53,887 bases of DNA from Patescibacteria group bacterium (GCA_035290345.1 DATDUP010000006.1:1-53887); one strand, 5' to 3'; counted from the stretch's first letter, positions 9,075 through 31,534 are shown. The notes: generated by a model not told the origin, from the letters alone. Numbers and translations: made by a program.

Positions 9075-9078
9075 ATGA

Positions 9079-11500: not shown

Positions 11501-11510
11501 AGATGATTAA

Positions 11511-11966: not shown

Positions 11967-12029
11967 AAACAAACAGAAATATTGTCTCATAATCCCATCT
12001 AAACGACAACACCGCCAGTAACAGCGGTG

Positions 12030-12815
12030 TCATCCTCCTACAGAAACAAGCAAAGACATGGTAAGAGCGGCCGAGGTGGGAATCAGCAGGTTATCATACT
12101 TCCCACTGATCAATTCGGCCCAAGAAGCCACTACGGTGGCTATGGCAAGGATGAGATAGGCGAAAATCGGACTGACTGTTGCTGGTAAAAGCGGAAATTG
12201 CTCTCGGGGCAGCAAAACAATCAGAGTTGTGGCTATCAAGCCGGCCCCCAGGCCAGACAAAAAACCACCCCAAGACTTTCCCCGAGCCGGCCCCCAGGCA
12301 ATAACCTTTATTGGCCAATACATCCCGAACTTAGCACACGGATCAACTGTGGCAAAGATCAGCCCAGTACCAGCAGCGATCCAGGGGGCATCAACCAAGG
12401 TACAGACGACCCAAGCTAAACCCAGGCCGGACAGACTGACCAGGACATTGCTCGGCCGATTCTTTTCCGTTTCACGAAAAAGATACTGAGCCAGCCACTG
12501 AGACAGGACAAACCGTTGCCCTTCCCTTTTGACGTTTACCACCTTGACTCGATACCAGTCCAGGACCCAGACTATCGGACCAATGGTAAACAGCAGCCAG
12601 CCGACAGTGGCCAGACTCACCCCGACGATCTGGAGCAGAAACCAGGCAGCCAGCCCGGCCGAGGAATGAAACAACCCACGGAACAATTCCCGTCGGCCGT
12701 CCCACTTGCCTCCCCAACCGCGCATCCTTTTTATCGCTCTCTTCAAATTCTTCATCACCACCCTCCTCAGGATTGGTTGTCTCTGAAATAATGTACTAGA
12801 GGCTATTTTACTCAA
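12030..12815 (-). CDS. polytopic membrane protein, possibly of the CTP-transferase/dolichol-kinase-like family (tentative)
   Basis: About 7 hydrophobic helices. ARGKSWGGFLSG resembles the GKS-x-EG motif of the CdsA/dolichol kinase family. The start codon is uncertain. Confidence 0.35.
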   Translation of the reverse strand: MSKIASSTLFQRQPILRRVVMKNLKRAIKRMRGWGGKWDGRRELFRGLFHSSAGLAAWFLLQIVGVSLATVGWLLFTIGPIVWVLDWYRVKVVNVKREGQRFVLSQWLAQYLFRETEKNRPSNVLVSLSGLGLAWVVCTLVDAPWIAAGTGLIFATVDPCAKFGMYWPIKVIAWGPARGKSWGGFLSGLGAGLIATTLIVLLPREQFPLLPATVSPIFAYLILAIATVVASWAELISGKYDNLLIPTSAALTMSLLVSVGG

Positions 12816-17686: not shown

Positions 17687-17716
17687 AAAGCCCCTTTCCG
17701 GGGCTTTATTTTTTTT
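17687..17716. terminator. bidirectional intrinsic terminator between convergent genes
   Basis: AAAGCCCC (17687-17694), loop tttcc, GGGGCTTT (17700-17707). T9 follows on the + strand and an A-run precedes it, which gives a T-run on the - strand. The hairpin overlaps the last codons of the GT2 gene. Confidence 0.7.
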
Positions 17717-18419
17717 TCAAAGAAGGTAATTCGTTATGGTATGGTCGACGACCGACACAAAGACAAAGAAAATTAAAAAAATAACGACCCAGATAACGAT
17801 TGAGACGATAGCGACGGCCAGAAACAAAACACTTTAAACTCATATCCAATTTTATCCGTCCCAACCTGGCCAATTTCCGGCACAAATCTGAATCTTCTCC
17901 ATAGCGAAGTTGAGGGTCAAAACCAGTAGTTTGCTGATAATCCTTTTTTCGAAAGGTCATATTGTTCCCCATGGGACCCACCTGCCCCCCTGACACCACT
18001 CGGGCAAAAAACCAGAGAAGATAATGAATAAAAAAACGAATAAAATTAATACCAATCCCGGTATCATAATATATCATCTGCCCCCCCAGGCAAACCAATT
18101 GTTTATCCTGCGCAAACCTTTTCTCTACCTCTACCAAATAATTGGCTGGCAAACGGGTATCAGCGTCAATCTGCAAAATATAATCACCTTGGGCAATTTC
18201 TGTCCCAGTCCTTCTGGCCCAACCCACTCCCAGTCTTTTTTCTGAAACCACCCATACCCCCAATTCTTGCGCTAAAGACAACGTCCTATCCTGAGAATTA
18301 TTATCAACCACCACAATCTCATAGTCGTCGGCCGGGTAATTTAAATGCTTGGCCGCCTGAATACAGGCCACAATATATTCCTCTTCATCATGGGCGGGAA
18401 TAATTATAGAAAACTTCAT
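17706..18419 (-). CDS. family 2 glycosyltransferase
   Basis: FSIIIPAHDEEEYIVACIQAA...YEIVVVDNNSQDRT...QIDADT (DxD-type), a typical GT-A/GT2 N-terminus. Confidence 0.85.
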   Translation of the reverse strand: MKFSIIIPAHDEEEYIVACIQAAKHLNYPADDYEIVVVDNNSQDRTLSLAQELGVWVVSEKRLGVGWARRTGTEIAQGDYILQIDADTRLPANYLVEVEKRFAQDKQLVCLGGQMIYYDTGIGINFIRFFIHYLLWFFARVVSGGQVGPMGNNMTFRKKDYQQTTGFDPQLRYGEDSDLCRKLARLGRIKLDMSLKCFVSGRRYRLNRYLGRYFFNFLCLCVGRRPYHNELPSLKKK

Positions 18420-18474
18420 AATCTCTTAAGTATGCCAAAACAAAAACGCGCCGGCAAGCCGGTGCGTCATTTTT

Positions 18475-19014
18475 CTACCAAGTATTTGCTTCACCACCAT
18501 CCCAGAATTGCCCGAGACCGGTCGACTCTCCCAAGGGGTCGGGATTGTTAAAATCTTTCATATTTTCATCTACCTTGACTTCTACCCCAGCATAGAAAGG
18601 CTTATCAATTCCGCCTCCACCAGTAGTGGCTTCGCGCAAATATCGTTCCACAAACAAAGAAATACTAAAGGCCGAAAGGGTAATCAAAACACCGAGCACT
18701 GCATATTTGATTATTGTCTTTGCCTTATCCACCTGTTCGCTTTCTCCCCGCGAGGTCATAATCAAAAATCCGGCATAGACTGTATAGGCAGTAAAAATCA
18801 CCCCTATCGTCCCTAAAAGTATCTGTACTATATAGGTAGCTACCAACCGTGGGTCGCGGGCCTGCCCAAGATTGGCCCCCTGTTCTCCCGCTGCTGCTTT
18901 CAACTGAGTCTGCAATTCCGTTTTATAATCCGCTCCGACTTCTAAAACCGAAAAGGCTAAGCTACAAAAAACAGCTAAACAGAGAATAATAATGAATGAA
19001 AATTTTTTTTTCAT
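18475..19014 (-). CDS. VirB2/TrbC-like (T4SS-pilin-type) membrane hairpin protein, paralogue 1, Cys-free C-terminal tail
   Basis: Signal peptide MKKKFSFIIILCLAVFC, then hydrophobic helix, loop YAGFLIMTSRGESEQVDKAKTII, and second helix. I prefer the internal ATG at 19014. Confidence 0.7.
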   Translation of the reverse strand: MKKKFSFIIILCLAVFCSLAFSVLEVGADYKTELQTQLKAAAGEQGANLGQARDPRLVATYIVQILLGTIGVIFTAYTVYAGFLIMTSRGESEQVDKAKTIIKYAVLGVLITLSAFSISLFVERYLREATTGGGGIDKPFYAGVEVKVDENMKDFNNPDPLGESTGLGQFWDGGEANTW

Positions 19015-19015
19015 G

Positions 19016-19426
19016 TTATTTCGGTACCACCCCACCCTCGACTACGGCCTTAGAGATCCGTTCCAGGATGAAATAAGTGATTGAATATGAAACAAAAATA
19101 ACTGCCAGACCGATTACCGCGGCTCGAATAGTATTTCGCCCCTTGCTCAATCTTTCTTCTTCACCATGGGAAGTGATATACCAATAGCTCCCAAAAACAA
19201 TCAAAACAATGAACACTGATCCGACGGTTGCTAGGGCGAGGTAAATCAACCAGGCAATCGTCAGACGCGGATCTCCTGGTTGCTCCAGTTCCGCTCCTTT
19301 AGCTCCTGCTCCGATTTGTTGGTTCACCTGACCAACTAAATTAACCGCCTCCACCGGACTACTGGCCAATATGAAAAAAGACAAAAAGAAGAAGAGGGGA
19401 AAAACAAAACTGAAAATTTTTTTCAT
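19016..19426 (-). CDS. VirB2/TrbC-like membrane hairpin protein, paralogue 2 (short form)
   Basis: Signal peptide, DPRL motif shared with paralogue 1, loop FGSYWYITSHGEEERLSKGRNTI, and second helix. Confidence 0.65.
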   Translation of the reverse strand: MKKIFSFVFPLFFFLSFFILASSPVEAVNLVGQVNQQIGAGAKGAELEQPGDPRLTIAWLIYLALATVGSVFIVLIVFGSYWYITSHGEEERLSKGRNTIRAAVIGLAVIFVSYSITYFILERISKAVVEGGVVPK

Positions 19427-19428
19427 AA

Positions 19429-20064
19429 TTACTGACATATGGATGCTTTCACACTGGCCTGATATTCACACTTGTCTGCATCATAACCACCCTTAACGCA
19501 AATCTCCGTACATTCTTCGGCCGAAGCCACATCTAAGTAATATTGGGAGTCAAAGCAACCTTTTTTCCAGCCAGCTTCATCTGCTTCCCCCTCATCTTCA
19601 TCCGCCACCACCCAATCGCCCCAGCAACGTCGGCAGCAACTTACCATACTCTCATCCTCTTGCGTCTTGGGATTTACTTCCTCACTGCTTTCTAAAATGT
19701 TAGGGACAATAAAGGTGGTAACACTGTAAGCTCCCACCGTAAGAATCACTCCAATCACGCTGCCGGTAATTATCTTCTGAGCTTTTTTTACCTGATCCTC
19801 TTCCCCCCGGGCCGTCATCCAAAGATAGCCAGCATAAACCATCAACAAAAGAAAAATCGCCCCGACAAATGACAAGGCAATGGCGATGATATAACCAATG
19901 GTAACAGAAAAGGTCGTCTCGTTAGTTGAACCAGAATAACCAGCTTCAGTAGCAGCCATTTTCGTATCTTTCAAACCAAAATTCAAAGCTAAGGCCGGCT
20001 CAACACTTAGCCACACCAACAAGAGTAAACTAGCTAACAAACCGATTTTCCATTTTATTGACAT
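19429..20064 (-). CDS. VirB2/TrbC-like hairpin protein, paralogue 3, with acidic 8-Cys C-terminal module
   Basis: YAGYLWMTARGEEDQVKKAQKII between two helices. The C-terminus is SCCRRCWGD...GCFDS...ECTEICVKG...KCEY...SICQ. Confidence 0.75.
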   Translation of the reverse strand: MSIKWKIGLLASLLLLVWLSVEPALALNFGLKDTKMAATEAGYSGSTNETTFSVTIGYIIAIALSFVGAIFLLLMVYAGYLWMTARGEEDQVKKAQKIITGSVIGVILTVGAYSVTTFIVPNILESSEEVNPKTQEDESMVSCCRRCWGDWVVADEDEGEADEAGWKKGCFDSQYYLDVASAEECTEICVKGGYDADKCEYQASVKASICQ

Positions 20065-20067
20065 AAT

Positions 20068-20631
20068 TTATTCTTCGGCTTTTGGTTCCACACATTCTTT
20101 GGGATCAATTTTCCCTAAATATTCTCCCCCCTCATCAATACATTGCTTTTTATCCCATTGATATCGATCACAGGTGACTGACCAGGCACTTTCACATTTT
20201 TTACAACAATCTACCCCCAAATCGCCGGTCTCTGTTGTCCCTTCAGTAGAAGCTGTCCGACTCAAAATTCGAGGCACCACAAAATCTGTAATACCATAGG
20301 CTGAAACCACTATCACCAAACCGACCACCGCGGTTATCACTATCTTTTGCGATTTCTCTATATCGTTTTCTTCCCCCCGGGCCGTCATCCAAAGATAACC
20401 GGCATAGACCATCAATCCAAGAAATATCACCCCTAACATAGAAAGACCAGCTTTAACCGCCACTCCCACTGTTCTGGCTAAAGACTGCTCATTTGTTCCG
20501 CTATCATATTCAGCTGTCTTCGCTGCTTTTTCTACTTTACTAAAGCCAATATCCAAAGCCAAGACCTGGTTGGCTAACAAGATACTACTGAAAATTACTA
20601 GAATAACGGCACTGAGCTTAAACCTTCTCAT
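20068..20631 (-). CDS. VirB2/TrbC-like hairpin protein, paralogue 4, with 6-Cys C-terminal module
   Basis: YAGYLWMTARGEENDIEKSQKIV. The C-terminus is DCCKKCESAWSVTCDRYQWDKKQCIDEGG...KECVE. Confidence 0.75.
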   Translation of the reverse strand: MRRFKLSAVILVIFSSILLANQVLALDIGFSKVEKAAKTAEYDSGTNEQSLARTVGVAVKAGLSMLGVIFLGLMVYAGYLWMTARGEENDIEKSQKIVITAVVGLVIVVSAYGITDFVVPRILSRTASTEGTTETGDLGVDCCKKCESAWSVTCDRYQWDKKQCIDEGGEYLGKIDPKECVEPKAEE

Positions 20632-20637
20632 AACAAA

Positions 20638-21231
20638 TTATTTCTTGGGAGCACAACAAATAATATTATCTTTAGTCGCATTGTCGCCGGCCATACATTT
20701 CCCCACCTTACATATTTCAGGTGACTGTTCGCAATCGCTCAGTTGGGCTTCTAAATCTTCCTCATCTTCATCAAATGGATTGTCGTGTGTGGCATTACAG
20801 GTGTTGATATCTACACAACTCCAGCCGGGATTTTGTTTTTCACAATCATTTTGAAGAACCGTTTCTTGACTGCCGGATTGAAAACGCTTGGCCACAAGTA
20901 CGGTGATGGCATAGGCCGAGGCCACAATCACAAACCCAATCATGGTAGAAATAATTATCTTCTGGGCTTTCTCCACCTGACTTTCTTCCCCCCGGGCCGT
21001 CATCCAAAGATAGCCAGCATAAATCATCAGGATCATAAAAATTAAGCCCACAATACTCAAGGCAGCGTTAATTGCCTGACCGACCACTACATCCACACTA
21101 CTATAAGTCGTCGCTCCTGCCTTATCAGCAACAGCCGTTGCCTTGGTGCCAGCATCCTTCAATCCGGCGGCGGTTACTGAACTAAAAACCATTATTCCCA
21201 CAATTATTATTATAAAAACAAATTTCTTCAT
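20638..21231 (-). CDS. VirB2/TrbC-like hairpin protein, paralogue 5, with 8-Cys C-terminal module
   Basis: YAGYLWMTARGEESQVEKAQKII. The C-terminus is NDCEKQNPGWSCVDINTCNATH...DCEQSPEICKVGKCMAG...IICCAPKK. Confidence 0.75.
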   Translation of the reverse strand: MKKFVFIIIIVGIMVFSSVTAAGLKDAGTKATAVADKAGATTYSSVDVVVGQAINAALSIVGLIFMILMIYAGYLWMTARGEESQVEKAQKIIISTMIGFVIVASAYAITVLVAKRFQSGSQETVLQNDCEKQNPGWSCVDINTCNATHDNPFDEDEEDLEAQLSDCEQSPEICKVGKCMAGDNATKDNIICCAPKK

Positions 21232-21254
21232 AATTATTTGTTTGATTAGTCAAT

Positions 21255-21998
21255 TTAATCTTTCCCGATCAAATATTCCCAGCCAGACTGACTATCCTCT
21301 TCTTGCATTTCTGCCGCAGCCTCGCATTTACCGCTACTGGCCACCCCTTCCACAAATTCATAATAAGCCTGACCACACAATTCGTCCTGGTCATCGCAAT
21401 TATACCCGATTTCTTCGCAATCTGCTGCTGTAGTGATCAATCCCCGCCAATGAATAGGATGAATCTCTGATGCGGCCGCGATCGGGTCGCCAATTAAAGG
21501 AATCTCTTCTATTCCTTCCATAGGAAGATTACCAGGAACCCGATAAGCTTCCAAACAACATCCAGTTCCTTCTTCTCCGGCCACTCCAGTACTCTCCCCA
21601 GACAATGCTCCGGCTTTCTGGCCCTCCACCAGACGCGTCATAACAAAATTGGTGATGGCATAAGAGGAAACCGTGAGCACTAATCCAATACTGGCTGCAA
21701 TAATCGTCCCCCGAGCTTTATCTATTTGTTCTTCCTTGCCTTGAGCAGTAAACCACAAAAATCCACCATAAAATACCAAAACAAAGAAAATTAACCCCAC
21801 CATTCCGAGAGCCAGCTTAGCGGCCTTACCTCCGGCCTGTTCAACTGTCATTTCTTCTGCTCCAATTCCCACGTTTGCCTTAGCCGCAAAACTCTCCGCT
21901 TGAGTAGCCTTATATGCCGCTTCTGCTGGCACCACTAAAAACAAGAATAAGAATCCAGTTATCAATCCTCCTGTTATTATTGCTCTACTTCCAATCAC
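21255..21998 (-). CDS. VirB2/TrbC-like hairpin protein, paralogue 6, with 6-Cys C-terminal module
   Basis: YGGFLWFTAQGKEEQIDKARGTI. The C-terminus is GCCLEAY...ADCEEIGYNCDDQDELCGQ...GKCEAA. Confidence 0.7.
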   Translation of the reverse strand: MIGSRAIITGGLITGFLFLFLVVPAEAAYKATQAESFAAKANVGIGAEEMTVEQAGGKAAKLALGMVGLIFFVLVFYGGFLWFTAQGKEEQIDKARGTIIAASIGLVLTVSSYAITNFVMTRLVEGQKAGALSGESTGVAGEEGTGCCLEAYRVPGNLPMEGIEEIPLIGDPIAAASEIHPIHWRGLITTAADCEEIGYNCDDQDELCGQAYYEFVEGVASSGKCEAAAEMQEEDSQSGWEYLIGKD

Positions 21999-22599
21999 AA
22001 TGGTTAGCTTTATTCTTACAAAGTTGTTCAGTTAAACCACCACAAAAGGCGTTGGGGTTGGTCTTATAAGCGTCTTTTATCTTACACTCTACCGGATCGT
22101 TCGTCACCAGTTCACAGTACCCGGAATTAGTACAATCTTCGACCACATCAATTGCCGCACAAAACGACCCCATAGTTGTAGCCGCCGTTGCTTTTGCTAC
22201 ACAACCTGTCGCCACTTGGCTACTGCCGGTATTTGGTCCGCCACTACTTTGAATAGAACTAAAAACAAATTTAGTGATGGCGTAAGAGGACAGGACAATG
22301 ATGATGCCGATAATAGCGGCAATAATCGTTTGCAAAGCCTTTTTTTCCTCTTCCGCGCTTCCTTTAGCCAACATCCAAGTAATACCCCCATAGATCATCA
22401 GGCCAAAAAATAAAACACCGACCAAAGAAAGACCGGTTCCCAAAACTTTACCAATCAAGGTCGGCAGATCCGAACCACCATAGGCTGTCAAACCCGCTTC
22501 ACCAGCGGTCTCGGCCAAGCCATATTGAGCCAAAGTCACACCTGGAATCAAAACTGTAATAACTAGAATCAAGAAAAAAAACTTTCCTAGTCTGCTCAT
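21985..22599 (-). CDS. VirB2/TrbC-like hairpin protein, paralogue 7, with 8-Cys C-terminal module
   Basis: YGGITWMLAKGSAEEEKKALQTI. The C-terminus is GCVAK...FCAAIDVVEDCTNSGYCELV...ECKIK...FCGGLTEQLCKNKANHCDWK. It overlaps paralogue 6 by 14 nt. Confidence 0.7.
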   Translation of the reverse strand: MSRLGKFFFLILVITVLIPGVTLAQYGLAETAGEAGLTAYGGSDLPTLIGKVLGTGLSLVGVLFFGLMIYGGITWMLAKGSAEEEKKALQTIIAAIIGIIIVLSSYAITKFVFSSIQSSGGPNTGSSQVATGCVAKATAATTMGSFCAAIDVVEDCTNSGYCELVTNDPVECKIKDAYKTNPNAFCGGLTEQLCKNKANHCDWK

Positions 22600-22602
22600 A
22601 GC

Positions 22603-23019
22603 TTAAAAATTATCAAAGTTATAATATTCATCCCCCACTGTCGCCTTATACAACTGAGTCATGACAAACCGGGTAATGGCGTAAGCAGCAAAAATAATCA
22701 ATAAACCGATAACTGCCGCTATCAAAGTTTTCTTGGCCGAACCAATGGCGTCTTCATTCCCCGCCGAAGTCATCCACCTAAAACCAGCATAGAGAATGAT
22801 AACCGTACAAATCGTACCCAATAAACCCAAGGCCACAATGATTATTTGGGCAACTGTAAAACGCACATCTTCGCTTCCCAAACCGGTCGCCTTACCATAT
22901 TCCAACCCTAAATAAGGACCGGTACTCTGAGCCGAAGCCAACATCGGTAAACCAAAAACTAAAAACAAAGAAAAAACAACCGCTAACAAAGAAGGTAGTG
23001 CTATTTTTTTTGTGGACAT
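22603..23019 (-). CDS. VirB2/TrbC-like pilin-type protein, paralogue 8 (minimal 138-aa form)
   Basis: Signal peptide ...LPMLASA, then helix, YAGFRWMTSAGNEDAIGSAKKTL, helix and a short tail. AAGGAGGG lies upstream. Confidence 0.75.
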   Translation of the reverse strand: MSTKKIALPSLLAVVFSLFLVFGLPMLASAQSTGPYLGLEYGKATGLGSEDVRFTVAQIIIVALGLLGTICTVIILYAGFRWMTSAGNEDAIGSAKKTLIAAVIGLLIIFAAYAITRFVMTQLYKATVGDEYYNFDNF

Positions 23020-23164
23020 AGTTTAAAACAATAAATACTGGCTACCCTCCTTTTTCTTACCACTATTTACTGCTCATGAGCAGTACCCTGCCCCGGATCA
23101 TGATACGGGGCAGGGTGTGATTGTTACTAAAACTGTTTTAGTAGCCATCGCTACTGGCAAATGA
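23020..23164 (-). promoter_or_regulatory. highly structured intergenic spacer (four consecutive hairpins/palindromes) between paralogues 9 and 8
   Basis: Perfect 18-nt palindrome tactgctcatgagcagta (23068-23085). 10-bp GC stem ccctgccccg/cggggcaggg (23086-23115). tactaaaac/gttttagta (23125-23143). gtagc/gctac (23141-23154). Confidence 0.5.
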
Positions 23165-23593
23165 TTAGAGTTCTTCTGTCGCGTAATCTTCACCAGTGGT
23201 GGCCAAATACAATTGCTCAAGTACGAACCGGGCGATAGCGTAAGCGGTTAGAATAATACCCAAACCGATTACTCCAGCAATGATCAATTTCTTCGCTTCG
23301 GCAACCTTATCTTCATTACCGCCGGCTGTCATCCATTTGAAACCACCAGCCAAGACGATCACAACGGCGACGATACCCAACATACTCAACGCTACGTTGA
23401 TAATATTGGAAATCATGTCGCGCAGATCCTGATTGCCTAAACCGGTTTTCTTGCCATAAACCAAACCGAAGTTTATCGTACCAGTTGCGTCCTCTGCGGA
23501 CACCAACATTGGAGCCACAAAAGTTGCCAATATCAAAGATAGAACCACGGTTACCACTACCTTATTTTTTGCCAAATTTATTAACCAAGACAT
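23165..23593 (-). CDS. VirB2/TrbC-like pilin-type protein, paralogue 9 (minimal 142-aa form, candidate major subunit)
   Basis: Signal peptide ...PMLVSA, LAGGFKWMTAGGNEDKVAEAKKLI between two helices. It has a strong SD AAGGGGGTGA and is the only member flanked by intergenic spacers on both sides. Confidence 0.75.
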   Translation of the reverse strand: MSWLINLAKNKVVVTVVLSLILATFVAPMLVSAEDATGTINFGLVYGKKTGLGNQDLRDMISNIINVALSMLGIVAVVIVLAGGFKWMTAGGNEDKVAEAKKLIIAGVIGLGIILTAYAIARFVLEQLYLATTGEDYATEEL

Positions 23594-23641
23594 GTTCTCA
23601 CCCCCTTTCTGTTTAGGGATAAATAAACTAAATAATTAGTT

Positions 23642-24601
23642 TTATTTTGCTTTTAAACTCCCGGTATCTATCGGAGTTAGCTGTATTCCCTCCAAACTCT
23701 TTCCGCCGGTTGCCCCCAATCCTTGAATCACGAGCTGTAGTATACCATAGGCAGCAAAAATGATAAACAGTCCAATCACTGCGCTCACCATCGCTTTCTG
23801 TCCCTTCTTAAATTTTTCTTCATCACCAGCAGCCGTGATGAACATAAAGCCGCCATAGACAAACACCACCAAGGTCACCGAACCGATCAACCCCATGGCA
23901 TAAGCTATTATCTTTCCTAACAAAACTCGCATATCCAATAGGCCGGTCGGTTTGGCCACTGTCCCACCCAAAGGATTAATCAAGCTCACCACGGTTTGGC
24001 TGACATCTGAAGCTGCACCCGCCGGTGTTGTCCCAGCATCAACCCCCCCTGAAGCTGGTGGGGTATCGGCACATGCCCCCTCTTTCCATTCGCAAGCCTT
24101 ACTACTGGCAATCAATGTCTTACACAATTTTTGACAATCAGAAGCTTCATCCCCAGTGCAATCCCAACTAGTTAATTTGGCGCTGGTCAAGGTCTTCTCA
24201 AAAGCAGCTGGACAATCCAAATTAATATGTTCTTTGACAAAAAGACGAACATAATCAGGGCTGCCAGCACAAGCATCACACTTAGTTGGGTCAGTCAGAC
24301 AGTCGTCCATTTGGTTCGGTTCTTTGCAGAATATTAGGGAAGCGGACCCGTCTTTTATTTTACCATCCAAAAATCCATTCCACAGCACACCAAATACACC
24401 CGAGCCCATACAATCATCTTTCTGAGCAAAAACCAAATCACCAGCCGCTGTCTTAGCCACATCTCCTTCTTCGATTGGTCCTGATTCACTTCCTGTCCCA
24501 TAAAAACAAACCGGAGATACTGTTTCTGCCCGGACGATTAGTGGCAACAACAAAAATGACCCTAGCAGTAGAAATGGTAAAACAAATCTTCGCTTTTCCA
24601 T
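23642..24601 (-). CDS. 12-Cys N-terminal ectodomain fused to a C-terminal VirB2/TrbC-like hairpin, paralogue 10
   Basis: Signal peptide MEKRRFVLPFLLLGSFLLLPLIVRA and a Cys-rich region of about 190 aa. Then LGKIIAYAMGLIGSVTLVVFVYGGFMFITAAGDEEKFKKGQKAM and a second helix. I prefer the internal ATG at 24601. Confidence 0.7.
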   Translation of the reverse strand: MEKRRFVLPFLLLGSFLLLPLIVRAETVSPVCFYGTGSESGPIEEGDVAKTAAGDLVFAQKDDCMGSGVFGVLWNGFLDGKIKDGSASLIFCKEPNQMDDCLTDPTKCDACAGSPDYVRLFVKEHINLDCPAAFEKTLTSAKLTSWDCTGDEASDCQKLCKTLIASSKACEWKEGACADTPPASGGVDAGTTPAGAASDVSQTVVSLINPLGGTVAKPTGLLDMRVLLGKIIAYAMGLIGSVTLVVFVYGGFMFITAAGDEEKFKKGQKAMVSAVIGLFIIFAAYGILQLVIQGLGATGGKSLEGIQLTPIDTGSLKAK

Positions 24602-24611
24602 ACACTTATAA

Positions 24612-25532
24612 TTAATAGTTCCTAAAGTCATAAAGCGGACTGACCCCAACCGCATCTAATAAAAATTCTACCAAAATATAAGCAGATAAAGAAATCGCCA
24701 TCCCTACAACCGCAGCTAAAATTATCTGATAACCTTTCCGTGTTCTCTCTGGATTGCCAAAAGAAGTGATTATTGTGAACCCACCGTAGATAAAAAAGGC
24801 AAAAGCAAATGAACCAATAATTACCAGAAGACCGTTGGCAAAATTCACTAATAACTGCAACAAATCATTGGTACTCCGGCAGGTTCCAGAAAAAGCGCAG
24901 GGGGGCAAGGCCCCTTTATAACCTTCGGGGGTGGGATATTTTTTCTGCCAGTATTGTGACTGAACATCCCCTGGAGCGCCAGCACTTCCTCCGGCCACTT
25001 CCGCACACGTACCATCAGCCTGCAATTCGCAACCGTTAAAAGCGGCACAGATAGATTTACATTTTTCTTTATTCGCCTCTTCATTGCAATCAACTGTTCC
25101 GATGGCTTTGGCAAAATCCTCTTGGCAGGAAGCAGCCACTTTTTGTCCCTGCTTCATTTTGGTCATTTGGCAAGTGCCACACTCATCTGAATTAACACAT
25201 TTGTCATAATCCGCCTCCGGACAAGTGCCTTGAATGCACTTATAGCTAGTTATTTTTTCCGCATCAACCCCTTGCTCAAAGGCCTTGGCTATACTGTTAA
25301 TACAATCGTCAGCGGTTTGATAACTATAAGGAGCATTAAAATCACCACCCAAAGAAAGATTCCCACTACTGCCGAATGGGAAAGCCAGGTTCAATGGTTC
25401 TGTTTCTGCTCCTTCCATCCAGGCACAATTACAAACATCCTTATCAGCCGCGGCTACTGACAATGGAGTGGCCAGACTGAACAAAACGCCAAAGGTAAGA
25501 AAAACTACAACAAAAAATATCTTAGGATGCAT
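24612..25532 (-). CDS. 16-Cys N-terminal ectodomain fused to a C-terminal VirB2/TrbC-like hairpin, paralogue 11
   Basis: Signal peptide ...PLSVAAA and a Cys-rich region (DVCNCAW...KCIQGTCPEADYDKCVNSDECGTCQ...). Then YGGFTIITSFGNPERTRKGYQII and a helix. Confidence 0.7.
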   Translation of the reverse strand: MHPKIFFVVVFLTFGVLFSLATPLSVAAADKDVCNCAWMEGAETEPLNLAFPFGSSGNLSLGGDFNAPYSYQTADDCINSIAKAFEQGVDAEKITSYKCIQGTCPEADYDKCVNSDECGTCQMTKMKQGQKVAASCQEDFAKAIGTVDCNEEANKEKCKSICAAFNGCELQADGTCAEVAGGSAGAPGDVQSQYWQKKYPTPEGYKGALPPCAFSGTCRSTNDLLQLLVNFANGLLVIIGSFAFAFFIYGGFTIITSFGNPERTRKGYQIILAAVVGMAISLSAYILVEFLLDAVGVSPLYDFRNY

Positions 25533-25534
25533 AT

Positions 25535-26914
25535 TTATAGGGTTTGTTGAATTAATTGGGCCGCGTATTTCACTAAAGCGGCATCCCGATCCAATTTTTT
25601 CTTATCCGTACCACCAAAGGGCTGAAGGTAACTATGTAACATATCCTTGATCGCCTTTTCAGCCGCGACCGAATCCCGACCCCGATACCAATTTTTAGAT
25701 TGCAAGAGATATTCAGTAAACGGTGCTAGCACCAAATCCTGGCGTTGCTCTTCCACCTGAGAACGGACTGGGCTGGGTTGTCTAACCGCTTCGGTATATT
25801 TTTTGATATTCTCCTTACTAGTGATGAACTTGATAAAATCCCAGGCTTCATTAGCGTTCTTACTCTTACGCGAGACTGTCTCCACCCAATAATTAGCAAT
25901 ATTTACCGGCGCGCTACTATTGAGTTGGGGTATGGGCAAAATTTCCACATCCATTTGTGGCGCTCGCGCTTTTATCCGCTGGTAATCATAAGAGAAACCA
26001 AAGTAAAAAGTCAGTTTACCTCGAGCAAAAGCCTGAAGAGCGTCCTCATTAGACTCATTCCAACAATAAACTTCTTTGGTGGGCTGGGCAAAATCTGTAT
26101 AAAACCTTAAGGCGGCCAAGGTAGCATTATTCTCTTGTGGTTTATCCAAACCAGCGGTAAAGGCCACCCGATTACCCTCGGTCATTTTCACCCCACTCTG
26201 CAACATGAATAAAGACAAAAGATCAAAAGCCCGAGGAATATTATTCCCTGTTCCCAAAGCCACCCCGGATTGGACAACATTTCCCTGAGCGTCAAACTTG
26301 GTGGTCGCCTTGACTGCTTCCATAAAATCTTCCCAAGTCTGGGGTGGTTCAGGAATGTTAGCTTGATCCAAAAGTTCTTTATTGTAATACAGAGCTAAAG
26401 TATCGACAGACAGAGGAAGACCAATAATTTGACCGTTAACAATGGCGTCTTCGTAGACAGTAGTAATAAAATTAGACTTAATCGCCGCTGGTGTCGGCAT
26501 TTTTACTTCGATCGGAGTCACGATGGTTTCTTTCGCATATTTCCCCTTGATCTGCACATCTGCTACTTTGACACTGGCTGGCATGTCCGCTAGTCGATTA
26601 AGATATTTACGGATATCTTTCACATTTACCGAGATAATATCCGGCGACACATCGTCAGCCAAGGCATTCAAAAGTAAGGTGTCAAATTCTTCATAACCCA
26701 CCTTACGAATATCAACGGTCACATACGGCCGCATCTTTTTATATTCTTCTGCCATTTGTTCCAAGATGCCGATATCATTGGTGATCGTCCAGTATTTCAA
26801 AGTTACTGGTTTGATTGCGGCCTGTTCTTCGGCTGACAATCCTTTACAACCAAAGCCACTGATTAACAAAACAACTGCGGCCAGAAGGGAAAATAATTGT
26901 TTGGTTTTTTTCAT
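25535..26914 (-). CDS. ABC-transporter extracellular solute-binding lipoprotein (sugar-type, family 1-like)
   Basis: MKKTKQLFSLLAAVVLLISGFGC (lipobox-like) followed by a typical SBP sequence of about 440 aa. I prefer the internal ATG at 26914. No permease or ATPase gene is adjacent. Confidence 0.7.
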   Translation of the reverse strand: MKKTKQLFSLLAAVVLLISGFGCKGLSAEEQAAIKPVTLKYWTITNDIGILEQMAEEYKKMRPYVTVDIRKVGYEEFDTLLLNALADDVSPDIISVNVKDIRKYLNRLADMPASVKVADVQIKGKYAKETIVTPIEVKMPTPAAIKSNFITTVYEDAIVNGQIIGLPLSVDTLALYYNKELLDQANIPEPPQTWEDFMEAVKATTKFDAQGNVVQSGVALGTGNNIPRAFDLLSLFMLQSGVKMTEGNRVAFTAGLDKPQENNATLAALRFYTDFAQPTKEVYCWNESNEDALQAFARGKLTFYFGFSYDYQRIKARAPQMDVEILPIPQLNSSAPVNIANYWVETVSRKSKNANEAWDFIKFITSKENIKKYTEAVRQPSPVRSQVEEQRQDLVLAPFTEYLLQSKNWYRGRDSVAAEKAIKDMLHSYLQPFGGTDKKKLDRDAALVKYAAQLIQQTL

Positions 26915-26921
26915 AGTCTTA

Positions 26922-27809
26922 TTATTTTTTGAAAGCTTCAAAGACAAAATTTACCACGACATAACTAGACAGGACCACAATCACCCCTAGACCGGTCTGC
27001 ACTAAAATTTTTTGGGCATGAGCTCTCTTATCTGGGCTACCGCCGGAAAACATCCAAATGATTCCGGCATAGACAAACATGACTAGAGCAATACTTCCTA
27101 ATAATTGTAAAATAGTCTTTATAATCTTCCCTAAAAGACCTTGCAAGGTCACTTTACCGCCGATTTGATTCAATTTACCCGCTCCTACTCCCAAAGAAAA
27201 CGGAGCAGAAGTAATGATCGTTGGCCCACCAGCGTCCCCAGCCTCATTACTCACTGGCGTCCCTCCATCCACATGCCAATTTACAGAAAAATTTTCACAA
27301 AGATTCTCCGTCCCTCCGGGTACTTCTATATCGGTAATCAGGGGCTTTAATCTGCTTTCACATTCTGCCGTCCACCAGTAAACAAAATCCTGGGCCTCTT
27401 TTTGCATTATTCCCCCGCACCCCGCCTCCTTACTTCCCTCTCGGACATAACATTGATAGCCAGTATACCCGTCACTGGCTGCCCGTAAACTGCATTGACT
27501 TACCAAAGTAGATGTTTCTTCTCCCTCGTTCAGATTGGGCATGCACACCCATTTGATATCCACCCCGATGATCAGGGCGGCTCTTACCTCGTCATTACTC
27601 TTACCTTCTTTCTGCATTTGTTCCACTTCTTGAATATTTTCCAAAAGCTTCTCTTTGGCCGTCTCAATCGGCAGTTCCGAACACACACAGTACTTTTCGG
27701 CTTGCACAAAAACAGGAAACAAAACAAAACCCAGGGCCAGAAACAAACTGGCCGCTCCTAAAAAAATCCATTTATTTAAAAGCTTCGAAAACAAAGGTGA
27801 CAATAACAT
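26922..27809 (-). CDS. Cys-rich N-terminal ectodomain fused to a C-terminal VirB2/TrbC-like hairpin, paralogue 12
   Basis: Signal peptide, then CVCSELPIETAKEK...VCMPN...QCSLRAA...YQCYVREGSKEAGCGG...AECES. Then YAGIIWMFSGGSPDKRAHAQKIL and a helix. The start overlaps paralogue 13 by 38 nt and is uncertain. Confidence 0.65.
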   Translation of the reverse strand: MLLSPLFSKLLNKWIFLGAASLFLALGFVLFPVFVQAEKYCVCSELPIETAKEKLLENIQEVEQMQKEGKSNDEVRAALIIGVDIKWVCMPNLNEGEETSTLVSQCSLRAASDGYTGYQCYVREGSKEAGCGGIMQKEAQDFVYWWTAECESRLKPLITDIEVPGGTENLCENFSVNWHVDGGTPVSNEAGDAGGPTIITSAPFSLGVGAGKLNQIGGKVTLQGLLGKIIKTILQLLGSIALVMFVYAGIIWMFSGGSPDKRAHAQKILVQTGLGVIVVLSSYVVVNFVFEAFKK

Positions 27810-28626
27810 AGCTGGCCAAAACGATAATTATTCCTAAAGCTGATTCTAATAAAATCTTCAAAGCCTTGCCCTGTTGATCTGATTTGCCGCCAGCGGTCAT
27901 CCATAATACCCCGGCATAGACAAAAACCACCAAAGCCACACTGCCTAATAATTGAAGAGCGATTTTAATCATCACCCCGATAAAGACCTGAATTTTCCTC
28001 TGGCTCCCACCCAAACCCAATTGATCAATTTTTTTCGCATTCGCACCAAAACTAAAATTGAAACCACTTGCTGCCGCCCCAGTACTCGTAGCTGCACCGG
28101 CTGTCCCCACAGTAGTACCTTTCAAATTTTTATAACTAAAATTGACACTAAGAAAATCACAGGGACTAATAAGTTCCGAAACTCCGTCCCCGGAATATTT
28201 TTGGTACGGTACTAATTTGTCACTGCACTCTACCTGGGCCCAAGCTGACAAATCCTTGGTATGAGCAATGGCCATCTCTTCGCAACTGGCGTATTTTTGC
28301 TCCACTTCACAGGTATAAGCGCTATAAGCACTATCACTGTGCAGTTGTTTGTTGCATTCGGCCAAAATCGTCGCTTTGTCCCCGCCCGTTACTCCCTCCA
28401 AACACACCGCCTGACTCTCCAGCTTTATTTCATCAATCTTAAAGGCCGGATCAGCCTGTTGTTTTGCCTTTAATTCCTCAAATATTCCAGCACTGGCGGC
28501 CTTAACTTGTTCGGTTGTTTCAGAGGCACAAACACACAGGTCAATTGCTCGCGCCACTGACCCAACAAAAAATAAACCCATGACAATTATCAGTCCAAAT
28601 AAAATTTTTTGTCCCCTTCCGGCCAT
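27772..28626 (-). CDS. Cys-rich N-terminal ectodomain fused to a C-terminal VirB2/TrbC-like hairpin, paralogue 13
   Basis: Signal peptide, then LCVCASETTEQVK...VCLEG...ECNKQ...YTCEVEQKYASCEE...VECSD, collinear with paralogue 12. Then YAGVLWMTAGGKSDQQGKALKIL and a helix. Confidence 0.7.
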   Translation of the reverse strand: MAGRGQKILFGLIIVMGLFFVGSVARAIDLCVCASETTEQVKAASAGIFEELKAKQQADPAFKIDEIKLESQAVCLEGVTGGDKATILAECNKQLHSDSAYSAYTCEVEQKYASCEEMAIAHTKDLSAWAQVECSDKLVPYQKYSGDGVSELISPCDFLSVNFSYKNLKGTTVGTAGAATSTGAAASGFNFSFGANAKKIDQLGLGGSQRKIQVFIGVMIKIALQLLGSVALVVFVYAGVLWMTAGGKSDQQGKALKILLESALGIIIVLASYVIVTFVFEAFK

Positions 28627-28633
28627 AAGATAA

Positions 28634-29479
28634 TTATTTCTTTCTGTTCCTTACCCGTTTTTGGTAAAAATGCTTAGTGGCTCGCATTAATTTTTCATCA
28701 TCGCCAGTGTCTAAAAACTTACCTCGATAAATATAAGCGTAGAATTCACCCTTCTGAGCCAGAGCATTAGCCGCATCCGCCATCCAGATCTCACCATCTT
28801 TGCCTTTTTGCTGTTGTTCTAGCGCTGACCAGATCTCCTTGGTAAAAACATAACGCATCCCTCCTACCACCAGATGATCCGGAGAAGCATTTTCTAGGGC
28901 TGGTTTTTCCACAAATTTCTCTACCCGGTAAGTCCGAGGGGCAACTAGACGACCATATACATTGCCATACCGAACCAAGTCCTCTTTATTCCTCAATTGC
29001 TGCACCCCAATTACCGGGGCGTGATATTTTTTATAAACTCGCAACAGTTGTTTGATGGCTGGAGTAGCCGAATCAATAATACTATCGCCCTCTGAACAGA
29101 CAAACGGATCGTCGCCAATCAATTCCTTGGCCATTAGTAGAGCATGGCCATTCCCCAAAGCTTCATTCTGGTAAGCATAGCTGATTTTCACTTTTCCCAA
29201 TAAGTCCACCAAGTGTTCAATCCGATGATACTTGTCTTTGGCTCTTAATGTTTCCTCATATTCCGGATTGCGGCTAAAATAATCCTCTATTAGTCTTTTT
29301 TCCTTATTTATTATAATAACCACTTCCTCCATTCCACTCCCCACTAATTCTTCTACCGTATACTGAAGAACCGGCTTATCCAAAACCGGCAACATTTCTT
29401 TGGGTAACACTTTAGTGACCGGCAAAAAACGCGTCCCCAAACCGGCCGCTAAAATTACTCCTTTGCGTATCTTCGACAT
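28634..29479 (-). CDS. galU: UTP--glucose-1-phosphate uridylyltransferase
   Basis: GVILAAGLGTRFLPVTKVLPKEMLPVLDKPVLQYTVEE is the canonical GalU N-terminus. Confidence 0.85.
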   Translation of the reverse strand: MSKIRKGVILAAGLGTRFLPVTKVLPKEMLPVLDKPVLQYTVEELVGSGMEEVVIIINKEKRLIEDYFSRNPEYEETLRAKDKYHRIEHLVDLLGKVKISYAYQNEALGNGHALLMAKELIGDDPFVCSEGDSIIDSATPAIKQLLRVYKKYHAPVIGVQQLRNKEDLVRYGNVYGRLVAPRTYRVEKFVEKPALENASPDHLVVGGMRYVFTKEIWSALEQQQKGKDGEIWMADAANALAQKGEFYAYIYRGKFLDTGDDEKLMRATKHFYQKRVRNRKK

Positions 29480-29537
29480 AACTAATTAACTGTTAATTGT
29501 GTATTCATTATAACAAGAAAACTCACTTTACCCAAGC

Positions 29538-30923
29538 CTAAAGAATCTCTTCCCAGCTGATTAATTCATAAGAATTACCTGTCGGAAAACCCGGGGGCGG
29601 ATAATACTTCAGATTACCATCATAACTGTGGTTGGTATTTTCGTAACCAGAAATCACATGCCCCCAACCGCTCACATATTTCCAGCCGCCGCCGGCAAAA
29701 GAAATCTGCGAACCAAAAATAGTCAGGGTGTCCTTAAGGTCACCGTCGTAGTAGGGACGATGCACTGCTCCGTATTGAGAAAGCATAGCAGCATTTATTT
29801 CCATAATATCCGGCGTCTCGTAAGGCACAATCACATTGCCCTGGGCCATCAGACCAATTACATCATCCGCTGCTTTTTCCTTGTAAGTCAGGTTGTTATT
29901 CACAATAATCGTCATGTAAGTTTCCTCTTGAACCGGAAACCGGCCGGCCGCAATGGTTATTCGTCCGTCCACCACCCCCTCAACCCAGACGTGGTCATCG
30001 CTAAAAATCATACCATTGGCCGGTAAATTATCAGTGGAAACAAAATCCTCGGTTTTGATGTCAAAACAATTTTGATCATAAACCCACCATTTTCCATGCT
30101 TTTCCCCCTGGCCGTTATAACAATCTCGGTTGTTCACCACATACAGATCATAAGTACCATCTTCGGCAAATACCAGATGCCAGCCTTCTTTTCCCGAAGT
30201 ATACAGATGCAAACCACCATCCTCATCCGCCGCCTCCATTATCTTAGACATGTCCCCACTCACCAAGTCAAAATCAATAGCCGGCACTGGATAGACCCAA
30301 AAAGATTTAGGTCCACCGCCTCCCCACACCCCGTCATGCCACTGGGTTAAATACTGATAACGATCCTTAGCGCTCTTTACCCAAGAGTCAGTCGTCCCAT
30401 CAAAGCGGATACCACCGTTGGAATGAACTGTGCCGTGTACTTCTGTGGTATAACTAAAATTCATGTTGGCATTAGACAAAAAAGTGTAATCCGCCCAAGA
30501 CGGGAATCCCACTCGTACTTGGATAGTGCGAGTAGTCGAGGGATTAACCACAGTCCAACCTGTAGAACGAACCACTACTACCGTACTCCCTGACAAAGGC
30601 GGATCAATATCTAAAGAAAAATACCCAATCAAATTCCCGTCTTTGTCTAAATACTCATGTTCATACGGCCCGGCTGATTCTTCCCCCTGGCCATCATAAT
30701 AATCAGTGGGGTTGTGGGCCAAATGCCAACGATAATAGTTGATACCTGCTTCGGCGATATGAAAGGCGATGTCTCGATCATATTTCCGGTTGGAAGCCTT
30801 GCTTTCAAACAAGGCATAACTAGTAATACCCAGGGTAATCATAGTAAAGGCGACCGTTCCAAAAACCAAAGCCATGACCAAAATGTTGCCTCGATTTTTC
30901 TTATTAGACACCAACCAACACAT
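29538..30923 (-). CDS. PilX-like / pilus-assembly minor component with N-terminal membrane anchor
   Basis: RGNILVMALVFGTVAFTMITLGITSYALF resembles a PilX_N-type anchor. A beta-rich domain of about 400 aa follows. It is translationally coupled to the pseudopilin upstream. Confidence 0.5.
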   Translation of the reverse strand: MCWLVSNKKNRGNILVMALVFGTVAFTMITLGITSYALFESKASNRKYDRDIAFHIAEAGINYYRWHLAHNPTDYYDGQGEESAGPYEHEYLDKDGNLIGYFSLDIDPPLSGSTVVVVRSTGWTVVNPSTTRTIQVRVGFPSWADYTFLSNANMNFSYTTEVHGTVHSNGGIRFDGTTDSWVKSAKDRYQYLTQWHDGVWGGGGPKSFWVYPVPAIDFDLVSGDMSKIMEAADEDGGLHLYTSGKEGWHLVFAEDGTYDLYVVNNRDCYNGQGEKHGKWWVYDQNCFDIKTEDFVSTDNLPANGMIFSDDHVWVEGVVDGRITIAAGRFPVQEETYMTIIVNNNLTYKEKAADDVIGLMAQGNVIVPYETPDIMEINAAMLSQYGAVHRPYYDGDLKDTLTIFGSQISFAGGGWKYVSGWGHVISGYENTNHSYDGNLKYYPPPGFPTGNSYELISWEEIL

Positions 30924-30924
30924 A

Positions 30925-31533
30925 TCAGGTTTGTTTAAGATTTCTAATCTGTACGAGAGTCTCCACTTGCAAAGGAACTGGTGTTTCGGTCGGATCTTTT
31001 TCTAGTTCTAGATGCAAACGCACTGACCGCACATTCGCCGCCTCAATCGGTTCAATCAGGGCGCCTTCACTACCAGTGTAATCTTCATCATAATATAGAA
31101 AAACTGGTTCATCTTTGGTTAAATTAACCACATCACTCGCTAAAATCTTCTCTGTTTCTTCTCCCTCATACGCCAGAGGGGTACCACTAGGTTTGATCAC
31201 TCCCATTTTAAAATCTGTACCAGCTAAATAAAAACGGACGCGTTCTCGATAAGCATCACCATCCACATTAGCATAAAGGACCAGGGTAGTTGAGGAGGCT
31301 GATTCCAAAGCAAAAGAACCAATATTAGAACTTTCCGCCCGACGAACGATGTCAACCACTTTTTGCAGAGCCTGCCGACCCTCGTTTTGGGTCTTTAGTT
31401 GCTCCCAGATAACGGCATTATAACGAAAAGAATAAATTACCAATGCAGTCAAACCGGAAACCAATAAAGAAACAATCGCAATAACAATAATTACCTCTAA
31501 AAGAGAGAACCCCAATTGTGATCTTTTCCTCAT
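30925..31533 (-). CDS. type IV pilin-like pseudopilin (prepilin-type N-terminal cleavage/methylation signal)
   Basis: MRKRSQLG|FSLLEVIIVIAIVSLLVSG is a class III signal peptide (G-F-x-L-L-E followed by a hydrophobic helix). Confidence 0.8.
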   Translation of the reverse strand: MRKRSQLGFSLLEVIIVIAIVSLLVSGLTALVIYSFRYNAVIWEQLKTQNEGRQALQKVVDIVRRAESSNIGSFALESASSTTLVLYANVDGDAYRERVRFYLAGTDFKMGVIKPSGTPLAYEGEETEKILASDVVNLTKDEPVFLYYDEDYTGSEGALIEPIEAANVRSVRLHLELEKDPTETPVPLQVETLVQIRNLKQT

Positions 31534-31534
31534 A

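Follow-up and report, generated by a model that had tools for sequence, protein, structure and literature searches.

A tandem array of 13 genes for VirB2/TrbC-like hairpin pilins lies on the chromosome of a Patescibacteria group bacterium with an ultrasmall genome, at positions 18475-28626 of a 53,887-nucleotide stretch of DNA (GCA_035290345.1 DATDUP010000006.1:1-53887) that was analyzed over its whole length and is referred to here as the window. The array is far beyond chance, being a conserved operon in 79 related loci, and the region is best explained as the form that the pilin array of VirB2-like type, part of Patescibacteria type IV secretion systems (T4SSs), takes in Magasanikbacteria (class ABY1). 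The feature is real and its kind has already been published; what is found here is a lineage-specific variant with new, testable structure. The reading favored here, with a probability of roughly 0.55, is that the array encodes a heteromeric host-contact pilus or pilus stub made mainly of the product of one gene, pil9, together with about ten minor 'modular' pilins, that this structure is assembled by an unlinked T4SS of the monoderm type, and that it serves epibiosis and not conjugation. The role of the Patescibacteria T4SS, called 'completely unknown' in a 2024 perspective, and of its pilin arrays is a stated open question of the biology of this group, and such arrays are essential in one tractable species. 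The 79 relatives provide an architecture that can be tested, with a candidate major subunit, fixed and non-redundant minor subunits, and a conserved partner in the form of a solute-binding protein (SBP).

A tandem family of two-helix pilins

Listing of the open reading frames (ORFs) of the window returned 13 pilin genes on the minus strand, interrupted only by the SBP gene, which matches SBP_bac_1 and SBP_bac_8. The genes are named pil13 to pil1 in their order of transcription (Table 1); an independent gene caller chose later starts for pil10 (319 amino acids, aa), the SBP gene (459 aa), pil5 (184 aa), and pil1 (179 aa). In a Pfam profile search all 13 products matched PF18895 (T4SS_pilin), with E-values of 9e-10 to 1.9e-4. 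Ten of them reach the gathering score of 26.6 bits, and the remaining three, pil1-3, fall below it (21.9-23.4 bits) with the whole module aligned. The curated cutoff of PF04956 (27.9 bits) is reached by none of the 13 window pilins, the closest approach being that of pil8 (E=1.7e-5, 25.3 bits, covering profile positions 1-96 of 98), followed at a sub-threshold 16.7 bits by pil12. Among 118 close relatives of pil9, PF18895 is found in all 118 and PF04956 also in 25 (E<=1e-3; best E 8.7e-7). The nearest NCBIfam model is NF045849 (Mbov_0395 family pilin-like conjugal transfer protein), the best match for six of seven members tested, at E-values of 2e-8 to 7e-3 and scores of 16-34 bits (cutoff 40) over nearly the whole 80-position model (pil1, E=7e-8), and identical proteins carry the name 'pilin' at NCBI. 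Homology of the array pilins to VirB2/TrbC is supported by these matches at the level of profiles, short of membership in PF04956 itself.

Hydropathy and motif mapping revealed an N-terminal hydrophobic signal segment and two transmembrane (TM) helices in each of the 13 proteins, and three hairpin glycines are invariant in the 13-way alignment. The module that contains them is 18-56% identical among the 13 paralogues (mean 33%), pil12 and pil13 sharing 56% and the members of the pil3-5 subfamily 49-54%. An AlphaFold2 (AF2) model of pil9 forms a helical hairpin, with helices at residues 57-89 and 94-133 and a predicted local distance difference test score (pLDDT) above 90 in the core. The prepilin motif (GFxxxE; PF07963/TIGR02532) is absent from all 13 pilins, whose signal peptides are instead of the signal peptidase I (SPase-I) type. 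These features, together with the placement of cysteines described below, fit a set of 13 Sec-type preproteins that carry PF18895 hairpins of two helices with both N and C termini predicted to lie outside. A sequence-only reading of the window, from which the present analysis started, had described 13 consecutive genes on one strand with a single SBP interruption, had placed their products in a VirB2/TrbC-like family, and had proposed a signal peptide plus two TM helices for each. The ORFs fall where that reading had put them and have the sizes it gave, the five loop strings that it quoted are all present in the translations, the family assignment holds through PF18895 with PF04956 sub-threshold, and the topology was found in all 13 proteins.

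A lineage-wide operon of position-fixed orthogroups

Related loci were sought by scanning one genome per species with an alignment of the pil3-6 hairpins, the full 13-member alignment being too divergent as a locus-finding query, and array members were then called with a hidden Markov model (HMM) built from the 13 window hairpins and run over all ORFs. The sample so obtained is biased toward Magasanikbacteria: nearly all of the 79 loci are labelled Candidatus Magasanikbacteria, which Table S1 of a recent survey places in class ABY1 (PMC12102498). The co-directional arrays in the 43 loci uncut by the locus end hold a median of 11 genes (range 5-14), with at least 12 in 20 of them and at least 13 in 7, and a looser count gives 15-16 pilin genes in three further arrays. 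Thirteen genes are thus nothing unusual in this lineage.

Reciprocal best hits between the 13 window pilins and the 44 arrays of at least 10 members gave a median of 9 orthologous pairs out of 13 per array, and the order of these orthologues is collinear, with a Spearman rho of 1.00 in almost every one of the 44. Hairpins are 43-66% identical between orthologues versus 33% between paralogues. Reciprocal-best-hit orthologues of pil2 occur in 40 loci and those of pil1 in 54. In most arrays pil13 and pil12 share one orthologue, as do pil4 and pil3, so that the 13 genes comprise about 10-11 ancient orthogroups plus recent local duplications. Variants from the same population are 99.4-100% identical over the array; an apparent strain-level fragmentation of pil13/pil12 in locus L086 was discarded as a product of runs of N from scaffolding. 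This pattern of conservation is the one expected of specialized, non-redundant subunits and not of a variation repertoire with fast turnover. As a lineage-wide operon of ancient orthogroups in fixed positions, the array speaks against a set of antigenic variants that can replace one another.

A different type of array was also encountered, in loci L080 (2634-9164 and 11191-16165) and L074. It consists of twelve uniformly small pilin genes (121-156 aa), hardly any of which has a one-to-one orthologue among the window pilins; after them come three copies, in tandem, of an unannotated protein of ~550-576 aa.

A candidate major subunit

Several features set pil9 apart. It is the most conserved orthogroup, with a hairpin identity of 66% among orthologues, and has 914 homologues. 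The Shine-Dalgarno (SD)-like site that precedes it is the sole one in the 19-gene co-directional cluster that holds the array (17706-33331), and SD-like cores stand 5' of 44 of the 49 pil9 orthologues (90%) versus 5-18% in each of the other 12 groups. On its 3' side, the 145-nt spacer between pil9 and pil8 has a folding energy of -49.1 kcal/mol and contains an 11-bp GC-rich stem-loop (Table 1), a possible transcript stabilizer or attenuator; the junction after the pil9 orthologue has a strong hairpin in 71% of the 49 loci, versus 0-23% at all other junctions. Because it is minimal, most conserved, and uniquely furnished with an SD-like site and a 3' stem-loop, pil9 is the probable major subunit, and by analogy with other pilus operons we infer that the others would be minor ones.

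Cysteine-rich ectodomains

Most of the remaining pilins extend well beyond the hairpin. N-terminal extensions of ~200 aa are found in pil10-13 and C-terminal tails of 57-128 aa in pil3-7 and pil1, and the 84 cysteines of the array are concentrated there: 80 lie in extensions, 3 in signal peptides, 1 in TM1, and 0 in the loop, a distribution that fits disulfide-bonded extracytoplasmic domains. All 8 cysteines of pil12 align with those of pil13. Between orthologues the extensions are 21-36% identical, with a wide spread of length and cysteine count, and in the pil11 orthogroup only the hairpin and a juxtamembrane motif, LPxCAFSGTCRxVNDLL, with two invariant cysteines, can be aligned. Database searches with pil13 returned matches to the hairpin only. 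A profile of the pil12/13 ectodomain, run exhaustively with HMMER against 1.84 billion representatives, yielded five matches, one of them a fragment of the same gene and the other four weak and repeat-like. The AF2 model of pil11 (pLDDT 73.7) shows an alpha/beta ectodomain, for which a fold search found no structural neighbor. The exposed, fast-evolving domains are obvious candidates for determinants of host specificity.

Genomic context and secretion machinery

The window represents core chromosome beside the replication origin. It includes rnpA (36040-36516), adjoined by rpmH and yidD, dnaA (38728-40107), and dnaN (40357-41484), and the GC skew changes sign at ~40 kb. The array, with a GC content equal to that of its surroundings, belongs to the 19-gene cluster, which comprises two genes for prepilin-type N-methylation proteins, a PilX_N-like gene, a GalU-like gene, pil13, pil12, the SBP gene, pil11 to pil1, and a GT2 gene. 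Neighboring genes of the cluster are -38 to +58 nt apart, the one exception being the 145 nt 3' of pil9, and promoter and terminator scans gave counts not above those of shuffled sequence. A tyrosine recombinase of the XerC/D type and two tRNA genes lie 2-3 kb downstream of the array, and the recombinase, like a Band7 gene, is syntenic in 24 loci.

Pfam searches of all window ORFs of 110 aa or more detected no VirB4, VirB6, VirB8-10, VirB3, VirD4, relaxase, or peptidase, and no divergent T4SS parts emerged when the unannotated window proteins were rescanned permissively at E<=1 and the small intergenic ORFs were included. Among the 79 related loci, no VirB4-like ORF or other T4SS machinery was found within 10 kb of the array; the large ORFs there that have no match among the window genes encode FtsH, a PilB-type ATPase (5 loci), NrdD, IF-2, recombinases, and similar proteins. 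The sequence-only reading had held that the 54 kb contain no secretion machinery, relaxase, or peptidase, and had named an adjacent T4SS in the complete genome as the sign of an ordinary conjugation locus; these searches bear it out on the first point and turned up no such neighbor on the second. Its implication that the array functions without a secretion system is not supported. Table S1 of the survey marks VirB4 as 'Yes' in six of the seven Magasanikbacteria genomes with the syntenic array (those of L010, L021, L023, L030, L036, and L039), and in any case some 40% of Patescibacteria assemblies have their pilin genes apart from virB4 (PMC12102498). Since VirB4 is marked in these genomes yet absent from the vicinity of the arrays, the T4SS machinery is encoded in the lineage but unlinked to the array, and the lack of machinery characterizes the locus and not the lineage.

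Relation to known systems

The survey in question examined 3,035 Patescibacteria genomes with PF18895 and PF04956 (Quinonero-Coronel et al. 2025, PMC12102498). It lists 441 VirB2 arrays of 2-11 genes, often near dnaA and in some cases with a non-pilin gene between the pilin genes; Microgenomatia and Saccharimonadia were said to have the most; pilin genes lie near virB4 in 1,135 of 1,948 assemblies, T4SS genes are frequently found near dnaA, dnaN, and rnpA, and relaxases are mostly absent. By its definition of an array (at least two pilin genes, in tandem or split by one non-pilin gene, and highly divergent), the 13 genes described here are one, and they share with the published arrays a chromosomal location, frequent proximity to dnaA, and the lack of a relaxase. 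They differ from those arrays in number, with 13 genes here and at least 12 in 20 of the 43 complete relatives, in belonging to class ABY1, and in being unlinked to virB4: the survey counts pilin genes as near virB4 when within 20 coding sequences, and no VirB4-type family occurs in the window or within 10 kb in relatives. Many of the related arrays are larger than the published maximum of 11. Fixed gene order, a major-subunit signature, modular ectodomains, and a conserved SBP do not figure in the passages of that survey available to us; what is new here is the lineage-wide fixed order, the pil9 signature, the hypervariable and cysteine-rich orphan ectodomains, and the conserved embedded SBP.

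The closest functional precedent is the Saccharibacterium Southlakia epibionticum ML1, in which a pilin series inside the T4SS cluster is essential (Wang et al. 2023, PMC10633639). Its array consists of six pilins (2025 review). As in the window, the pilins are VirB2-like, alike in structure though divergent in sequence, and come from a monoderm epibiont, and neither a coupling protein nor a relaxase accompanies them; unlike the window, their six genes sit inside the virB4 cluster, whereas here 13 genes are accompanied by an SBP and lie more than 18 kb from any machinery gene. The essentiality shown in ML1 (PMC10633639) agrees with non-redundant subunits. With these two reports, of an essential array in 2023 (PMC10633639) and of VirB2-like arrays of 2-11 genes in 2025 (PMC12102498), the novelty that the sequence-only reading had attached to the array lapses, and so does the special status it had given to 13 copies, which are ordinary in a lineage with a median of 11 and a maximum of 14-16. 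Its suggestion of a display scaffold rather than a conjugation system sits well with the location of 80 of 84 cysteines in extensions and with the hypervariable orphan ectodomains.

Other comparisons are instructive in part. Like VirB2, TrbC, and TraA of the F and T pili, the array pilins have a long cleavable leader and a predicted two-helix hairpin with both termini outside the cytoplasm; unlike them, they belong to a monoderm host, have no adjacent VirB machinery and no cyclase or acetylase gene, and in many cases bear large ectodomains, which are not a feature of classical pilins. The NF045849 protein Mbov_0395, from a Mycoplasma integrated conjugative element (ICE), likewise comes from a wall-less or monoderm host but is a single-copy component of a mobile element. 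Tandem divergent virB2 copies in Anaplasma and Bartonella have been read as antigenic or host-range variants (cited in PMC12102498), whereas the copies described here are ancient, position-fixed orthogroups. Finally, PilB of Streptococcus sanguinis (PMC8179133) has a functional module grafted onto a pilin moiety and acts as a minor subunit beside a simple major pilin. Such modular type IV pilus (T4P) pilins share a design principle with the array but belong to an unrelated filament superfamily (T4P, with a class III signal peptide), so the likeness is one of analogy only (PMC8179133).

Interpretation and alternatives

In the host-contact pilus or stub favored here, pil9, perhaps with pil8, would be the abundant major subunit, and the remaining ~10 types would be low-abundance, non-redundant minor or tip subunits, that is, 'modular pilins'. 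F and T pilins have both termini outside the cytoplasm on membrane insertion; in the F and T filaments the termini face outward, and the loop borders the lumen and binds a phospholipid. With this topology, the appended domains of the array pilins would decorate the exterior of the filament or stub, where they would touch the host cell. Extraction of the subunits from the membrane and their polymerization would fall to a machine of the VirB4/VirB3/VirB6/TrsD type whose genes lie in another part of the genome, and the structure would be used for epibiotic host attachment or exchange. Conjugation is disfavored as its purpose because the window has no relaxase or type IV coupling protein (T4CP) and the array belongs to a chromosomal core synteny near dnaA. 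It is enticing to go further and speculate that the locus encodes a multi-subunit organelle with the logic of chaperone-usher pili or T4P, in which a bare major subunit, pil9, is joined by about ten modular minors with host-recognizing ectodomains, by a co-expressed sugar-binding lipoprotein and UDP-glucose/glycolipid enzymes, and by an unlinked monoderm T4SS. This fuller picture is tentative and, taken as a whole, rather doubtful; if true, it would be the first heteropolymeric, adhesin-decorated T4SS pilus, devoted to epibiosis rather than DNA transfer.

A number of observations weigh against a polymerized structure with pil9 at its core. Foldseek comparison of the pil9 model with the PDB gave a best E of 1.1 and no pilin in the top 50, a bare helical hairpin matching non-specifically, and an hmmsearch of PDB sequences with the hairpin profile retrieved no solved pilins. 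To our knowledge, PF18895 proteins have never been observed as filaments. If every copy bore a 200-aa ectodomain, packing into a helical filament would be difficult, and the members that bear one might therefore never polymerize. The SD-like site and stem-loop argue for high pil9 expression as sequence signals only, and the stem-loop at 23085-23116 has no T-tract and went unreported by the terminator scan. One 870-kb metagenome-assembled genome (MAG) with an array, that of L031, is VirB4-negative in Table S1 (PMC12102498). Some of these points would suit a set of T4SS-independent membrane anchors, in which the hairpin serves only to display ectodomains at the cell surface and the array amounts to an adhesin or receptor set with an SBP lipoprotein, involving neither polymerization nor a secretion ATPase: the large ectodomains look ill-suited to a filament, fold-level matches to assembled pilins are lacking, the related MAG of L031 has no VirB4, and virB4 is not linked to the array in the window or in the 79 related loci. 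Such anchors are nonetheless unlikely, as pil8, pil9, and pil2 display almost nothing and yet pil9 is the most conserved and the best-expressed candidate, the family is homologous to TrbC/VirB2 and to the Mycoplasma ICE pilin-like protein, the Saccharibacteria array is encoded inside a T4SS cluster, and VirB4 is present in six of seven relatives. It is also improbable that the copies form a variation repertoire of interchangeable alternative major pilins for antigenic variation or host-range switching, an idea raised for Patescibacteria arrays in the survey, as proposed for the VirB2 paralogues of Anaplasma and Bartonella (PMC12102498). The strong divergence of the paralogues (33% mean module identity) and the marked differences between species in the exposed extensions are what such a repertoire would lead one to expect; one-to-one orthology and perfect collinearity over 44 arrays, however, mark the copies as ancient and differentiated, the genes form a single tight operon without per-gene promoters (the promoter scan not exceeding shuffles), an SD-like site is characteristic of one orthogroup only, and strains of the same population are 99.4-100% identical, the sole 'variant' being a scaffold gap. 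The explanation borrowed from Rickettsiales and Bartonella is weakened by these results.

Two further accounts draw on the neighborhood. The hairpin proteins could act as accessory subunits of a T4P machine instead of a T4SS, as three T4P minor-pilin-like genes head the same cluster with 1-nt gaps between them and a PilB-type ATPase lies ~4 kb downstream of the array in five related loci. We regard this as very unlikely: a prepilin N-terminus is found in none of the 13 pilins, which have SPase-I-type signal peptides instead, and a PilX-like gene stands directly upstream of the GalU-like gene in only 15 of 32 loci, a linkage that is not conserved across the set and is therefore clade-specific. 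The least credible account, the remnant of an ICE that has lost its machinery genes, would take the tyrosine recombinase and the two tRNA genes 2-3 kb downstream as vestiges of integration. That recombinase, however, is of the XerC/D type and is syntenic in 24 loci, as is Band7, the array does not differ from its surroundings in GC content, the neighborhood is conserved core chromosome next to oriC, the window ORFs include no relaxase or T4CP, and neither flanking attachment-site repeats nor array-less sister genomes were found.

Neighboring genes

Table 1. Genes and sequence signals of the pilin cluster, in order of transcription; positions are counted from the first nucleotide of the window.
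Feature	Position	Strand	Description
three T4P minor-pilin-like genes	29538..33331	(-)	598-aa and 202-aa prepilin-type N-methylation proteins and 461-aa PilX_N-like protein; PF07963/TIGR02532, weak PilX_N
GalU-like UTP-glucose-1-phosphate uridylyltransferase	28634..29479	(-)	PF00483; TIGR01099 galU E=3.8e-76, below strict cutoff; 7 nt upstream of pil13
pil13	27772..28626	(-)	PF18895 28.2 bits; ~196-aa N-terminal Cys-rich ectodomain with 8 Cys; orphan ectodomain
pil12	26922..27809	(-)	PF18895 36.7 bits, PF04956 E=0.0085; ~202-aa N-terminal Cys-rich ectodomain
SBP gene	25535..26947	(-)	470-aa ORF; SBP_bac_8 E=2e-32, SBP_bac_1 E=5e-24; between pil12 and pil11
pil11	24612..25532	(-)	PF18895 26.6 bits; ~210-aa N-terminal ectodomain with 16 Cys; conserved juxtamembrane motif LPPCAFSGTCRxxNDLL
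pil10	23642..24655	(-)	PF18895 36.1 bits; ~206-aa N-terminal Cys-rich ectodomain; orthologue length 204+-81 aa
SD-like site AAAGGGGGTGA	23598..23608	(-)	7 nt 5' of pil9 ATG
pil9	23165..23593	(-)	PF18895 38.9 bits; minimal, 142 aa, without Cys; candidate major subunit
11-bp GC-rich stem-loop ACCCTGCCCCG / CGGGGCAGGGT	23085..23116	(-)	in the 145-nt pil9-pil8 spacer
pil8	22603..23019	(-)	PF18895 36 bits; minimal, 138 aa; best bridge to classical TrbC/VirB2
pil7	21985..22599	(-)	PF18895 31.5 bits; ~97-aa C-terminal tail with 8 Cys; orthologues have a median of 8 Cys
pil6	21255..21998	(-)	PF18895 28.7 bits; ~128-aa C-terminal tail with 6 Cys
pil5	20638..21231	(-)	PF18895 33.4 bits; C-terminal tail with 8 Cys; member of the pil3-5 subfamily (YAGYLWMTARGEE)
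pil4	20068..20631	(-)	PF18895 27.3 bits; C-terminal tail with 6 Cys
pil3	19429..20064	(-)	PF18895 23.4 bits (below cutoff), E=6.6e-5; C-terminal tail with 8 Cys
pil2	19016..19438	(-)	PF18895 21.9 bits (below cutoff), E=1.9e-4; 140 aa, without Cys
pil1	18475..19035	(-)	PF18895 23.1 bits (below cutoff), E=8.1e-5; last pilin; ~57-aa C-terminal tail without Cys
GT2 glycosyltransferase	17706..18419	(-)	PF00535; 55 nt downstream of pil1

The SBP gene is found inside the array, usually after the first pilin, in 37 of the 41 loci that cover this position. Its product, which shows weak similarity to GanS, MalE, NgcE, and UgpB, is a carbohydrate-type SBP and probably a lipoprotein; no ABC permease or ATPase partner for it was found in the window. 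One homologue of the hairpin proteins is annotated as 'TRAP small permease', and the idea that the hairpins are small transporter subunits serving the SBP was considered and rejected because the SBP is ABC-type, the signal peptides are cleavable, and no ABC or TRAP membrane component is present.

The flanks of the array are also conserved. A GalU-like gene lies directly upstream in 29 of 41 loci, and a GT2 or diglucosyl-diacylglycerol-synthase-like gene directly downstream in 45 of 62. Taken with the SBP, the conservation of GalU and glucolipid-synthase/GT2 genes on the two sides hints at an involvement of sugars or glycolipids. Conjugative pili are co-polymers of pilin and lipid, and since they contain lipid, a link between glycolipid and the array is conceivable. 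The diglucosyl-diacylglycerol-synthase-like (UgtP/MGDG_synth) gene is convergent to the array end, as at 11271-12512 (-) in L050, and has homologues in 31 of 62 loci; at this position the window has the GT2 gene, with the GalU-like UDP-glucose pyrophosphorylase gene at the array start.

Of the T4P minor-pilin-like genes at the head of the cluster, only those at 30925-33331 encode a prepilin motif. In five related loci, L014 (15198-16997), L030, L008, and L027 among them, the region ~4 kb downstream of the array carries genes for a PilB-type T2SSE ATPase and FtsH, which brings T4P machinery close to the array in this sub-clade.

Other observations in the window

Beside dnaA, at 36707-38509 (-), lies a gene for a 600-aa protein with an N-terminal TM helix, a Thr-rich linker, and about five repeats of ~90 aa, each with a conserved cysteine pair (e.g. 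TCTEKDEICQAKSGPY, SCSSLECVYLGGPY, and TCDTLSCYYIGGPY). This protein, for which Pfam and NCBIfam have no matching family, is probably a surface protein built of repeat domains. At 8163-9819 (-), a gene for a RimK-type ATP-grasp ligase is followed by one for a 246-aa protein with faint similarity to poly-gamma-glutamate hydrolase (E=0.09), a pair that may carry out peptide tailing and trimming. An unannotated 102-aa ORF at 6606-6914 (+), on which the independent gene caller agrees, encodes three predicted TM helices and belongs to no family.

The two ends of the window differ in composition from the rest. The left end is GC-rich (0.524 over the first 2 kb) and contains, at 1-1000, a 292-aa ORF of odd composition with no family and no Rfam match; it may be an assembly-end artifact. 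Toward the right end, just beyond which the 54,781-bp contig stops, a low-GC block at ~46000-52000 (0.355-0.374, versus ~0.44 elsewhere) encodes two GNAT acetyltransferases, a methyltransferase, a radical-SAM/SPASM enzyme, a HopJ-like protein, and a class II aminoacyl-tRNA synthetase, and may be an island or a peptide-modification cluster.

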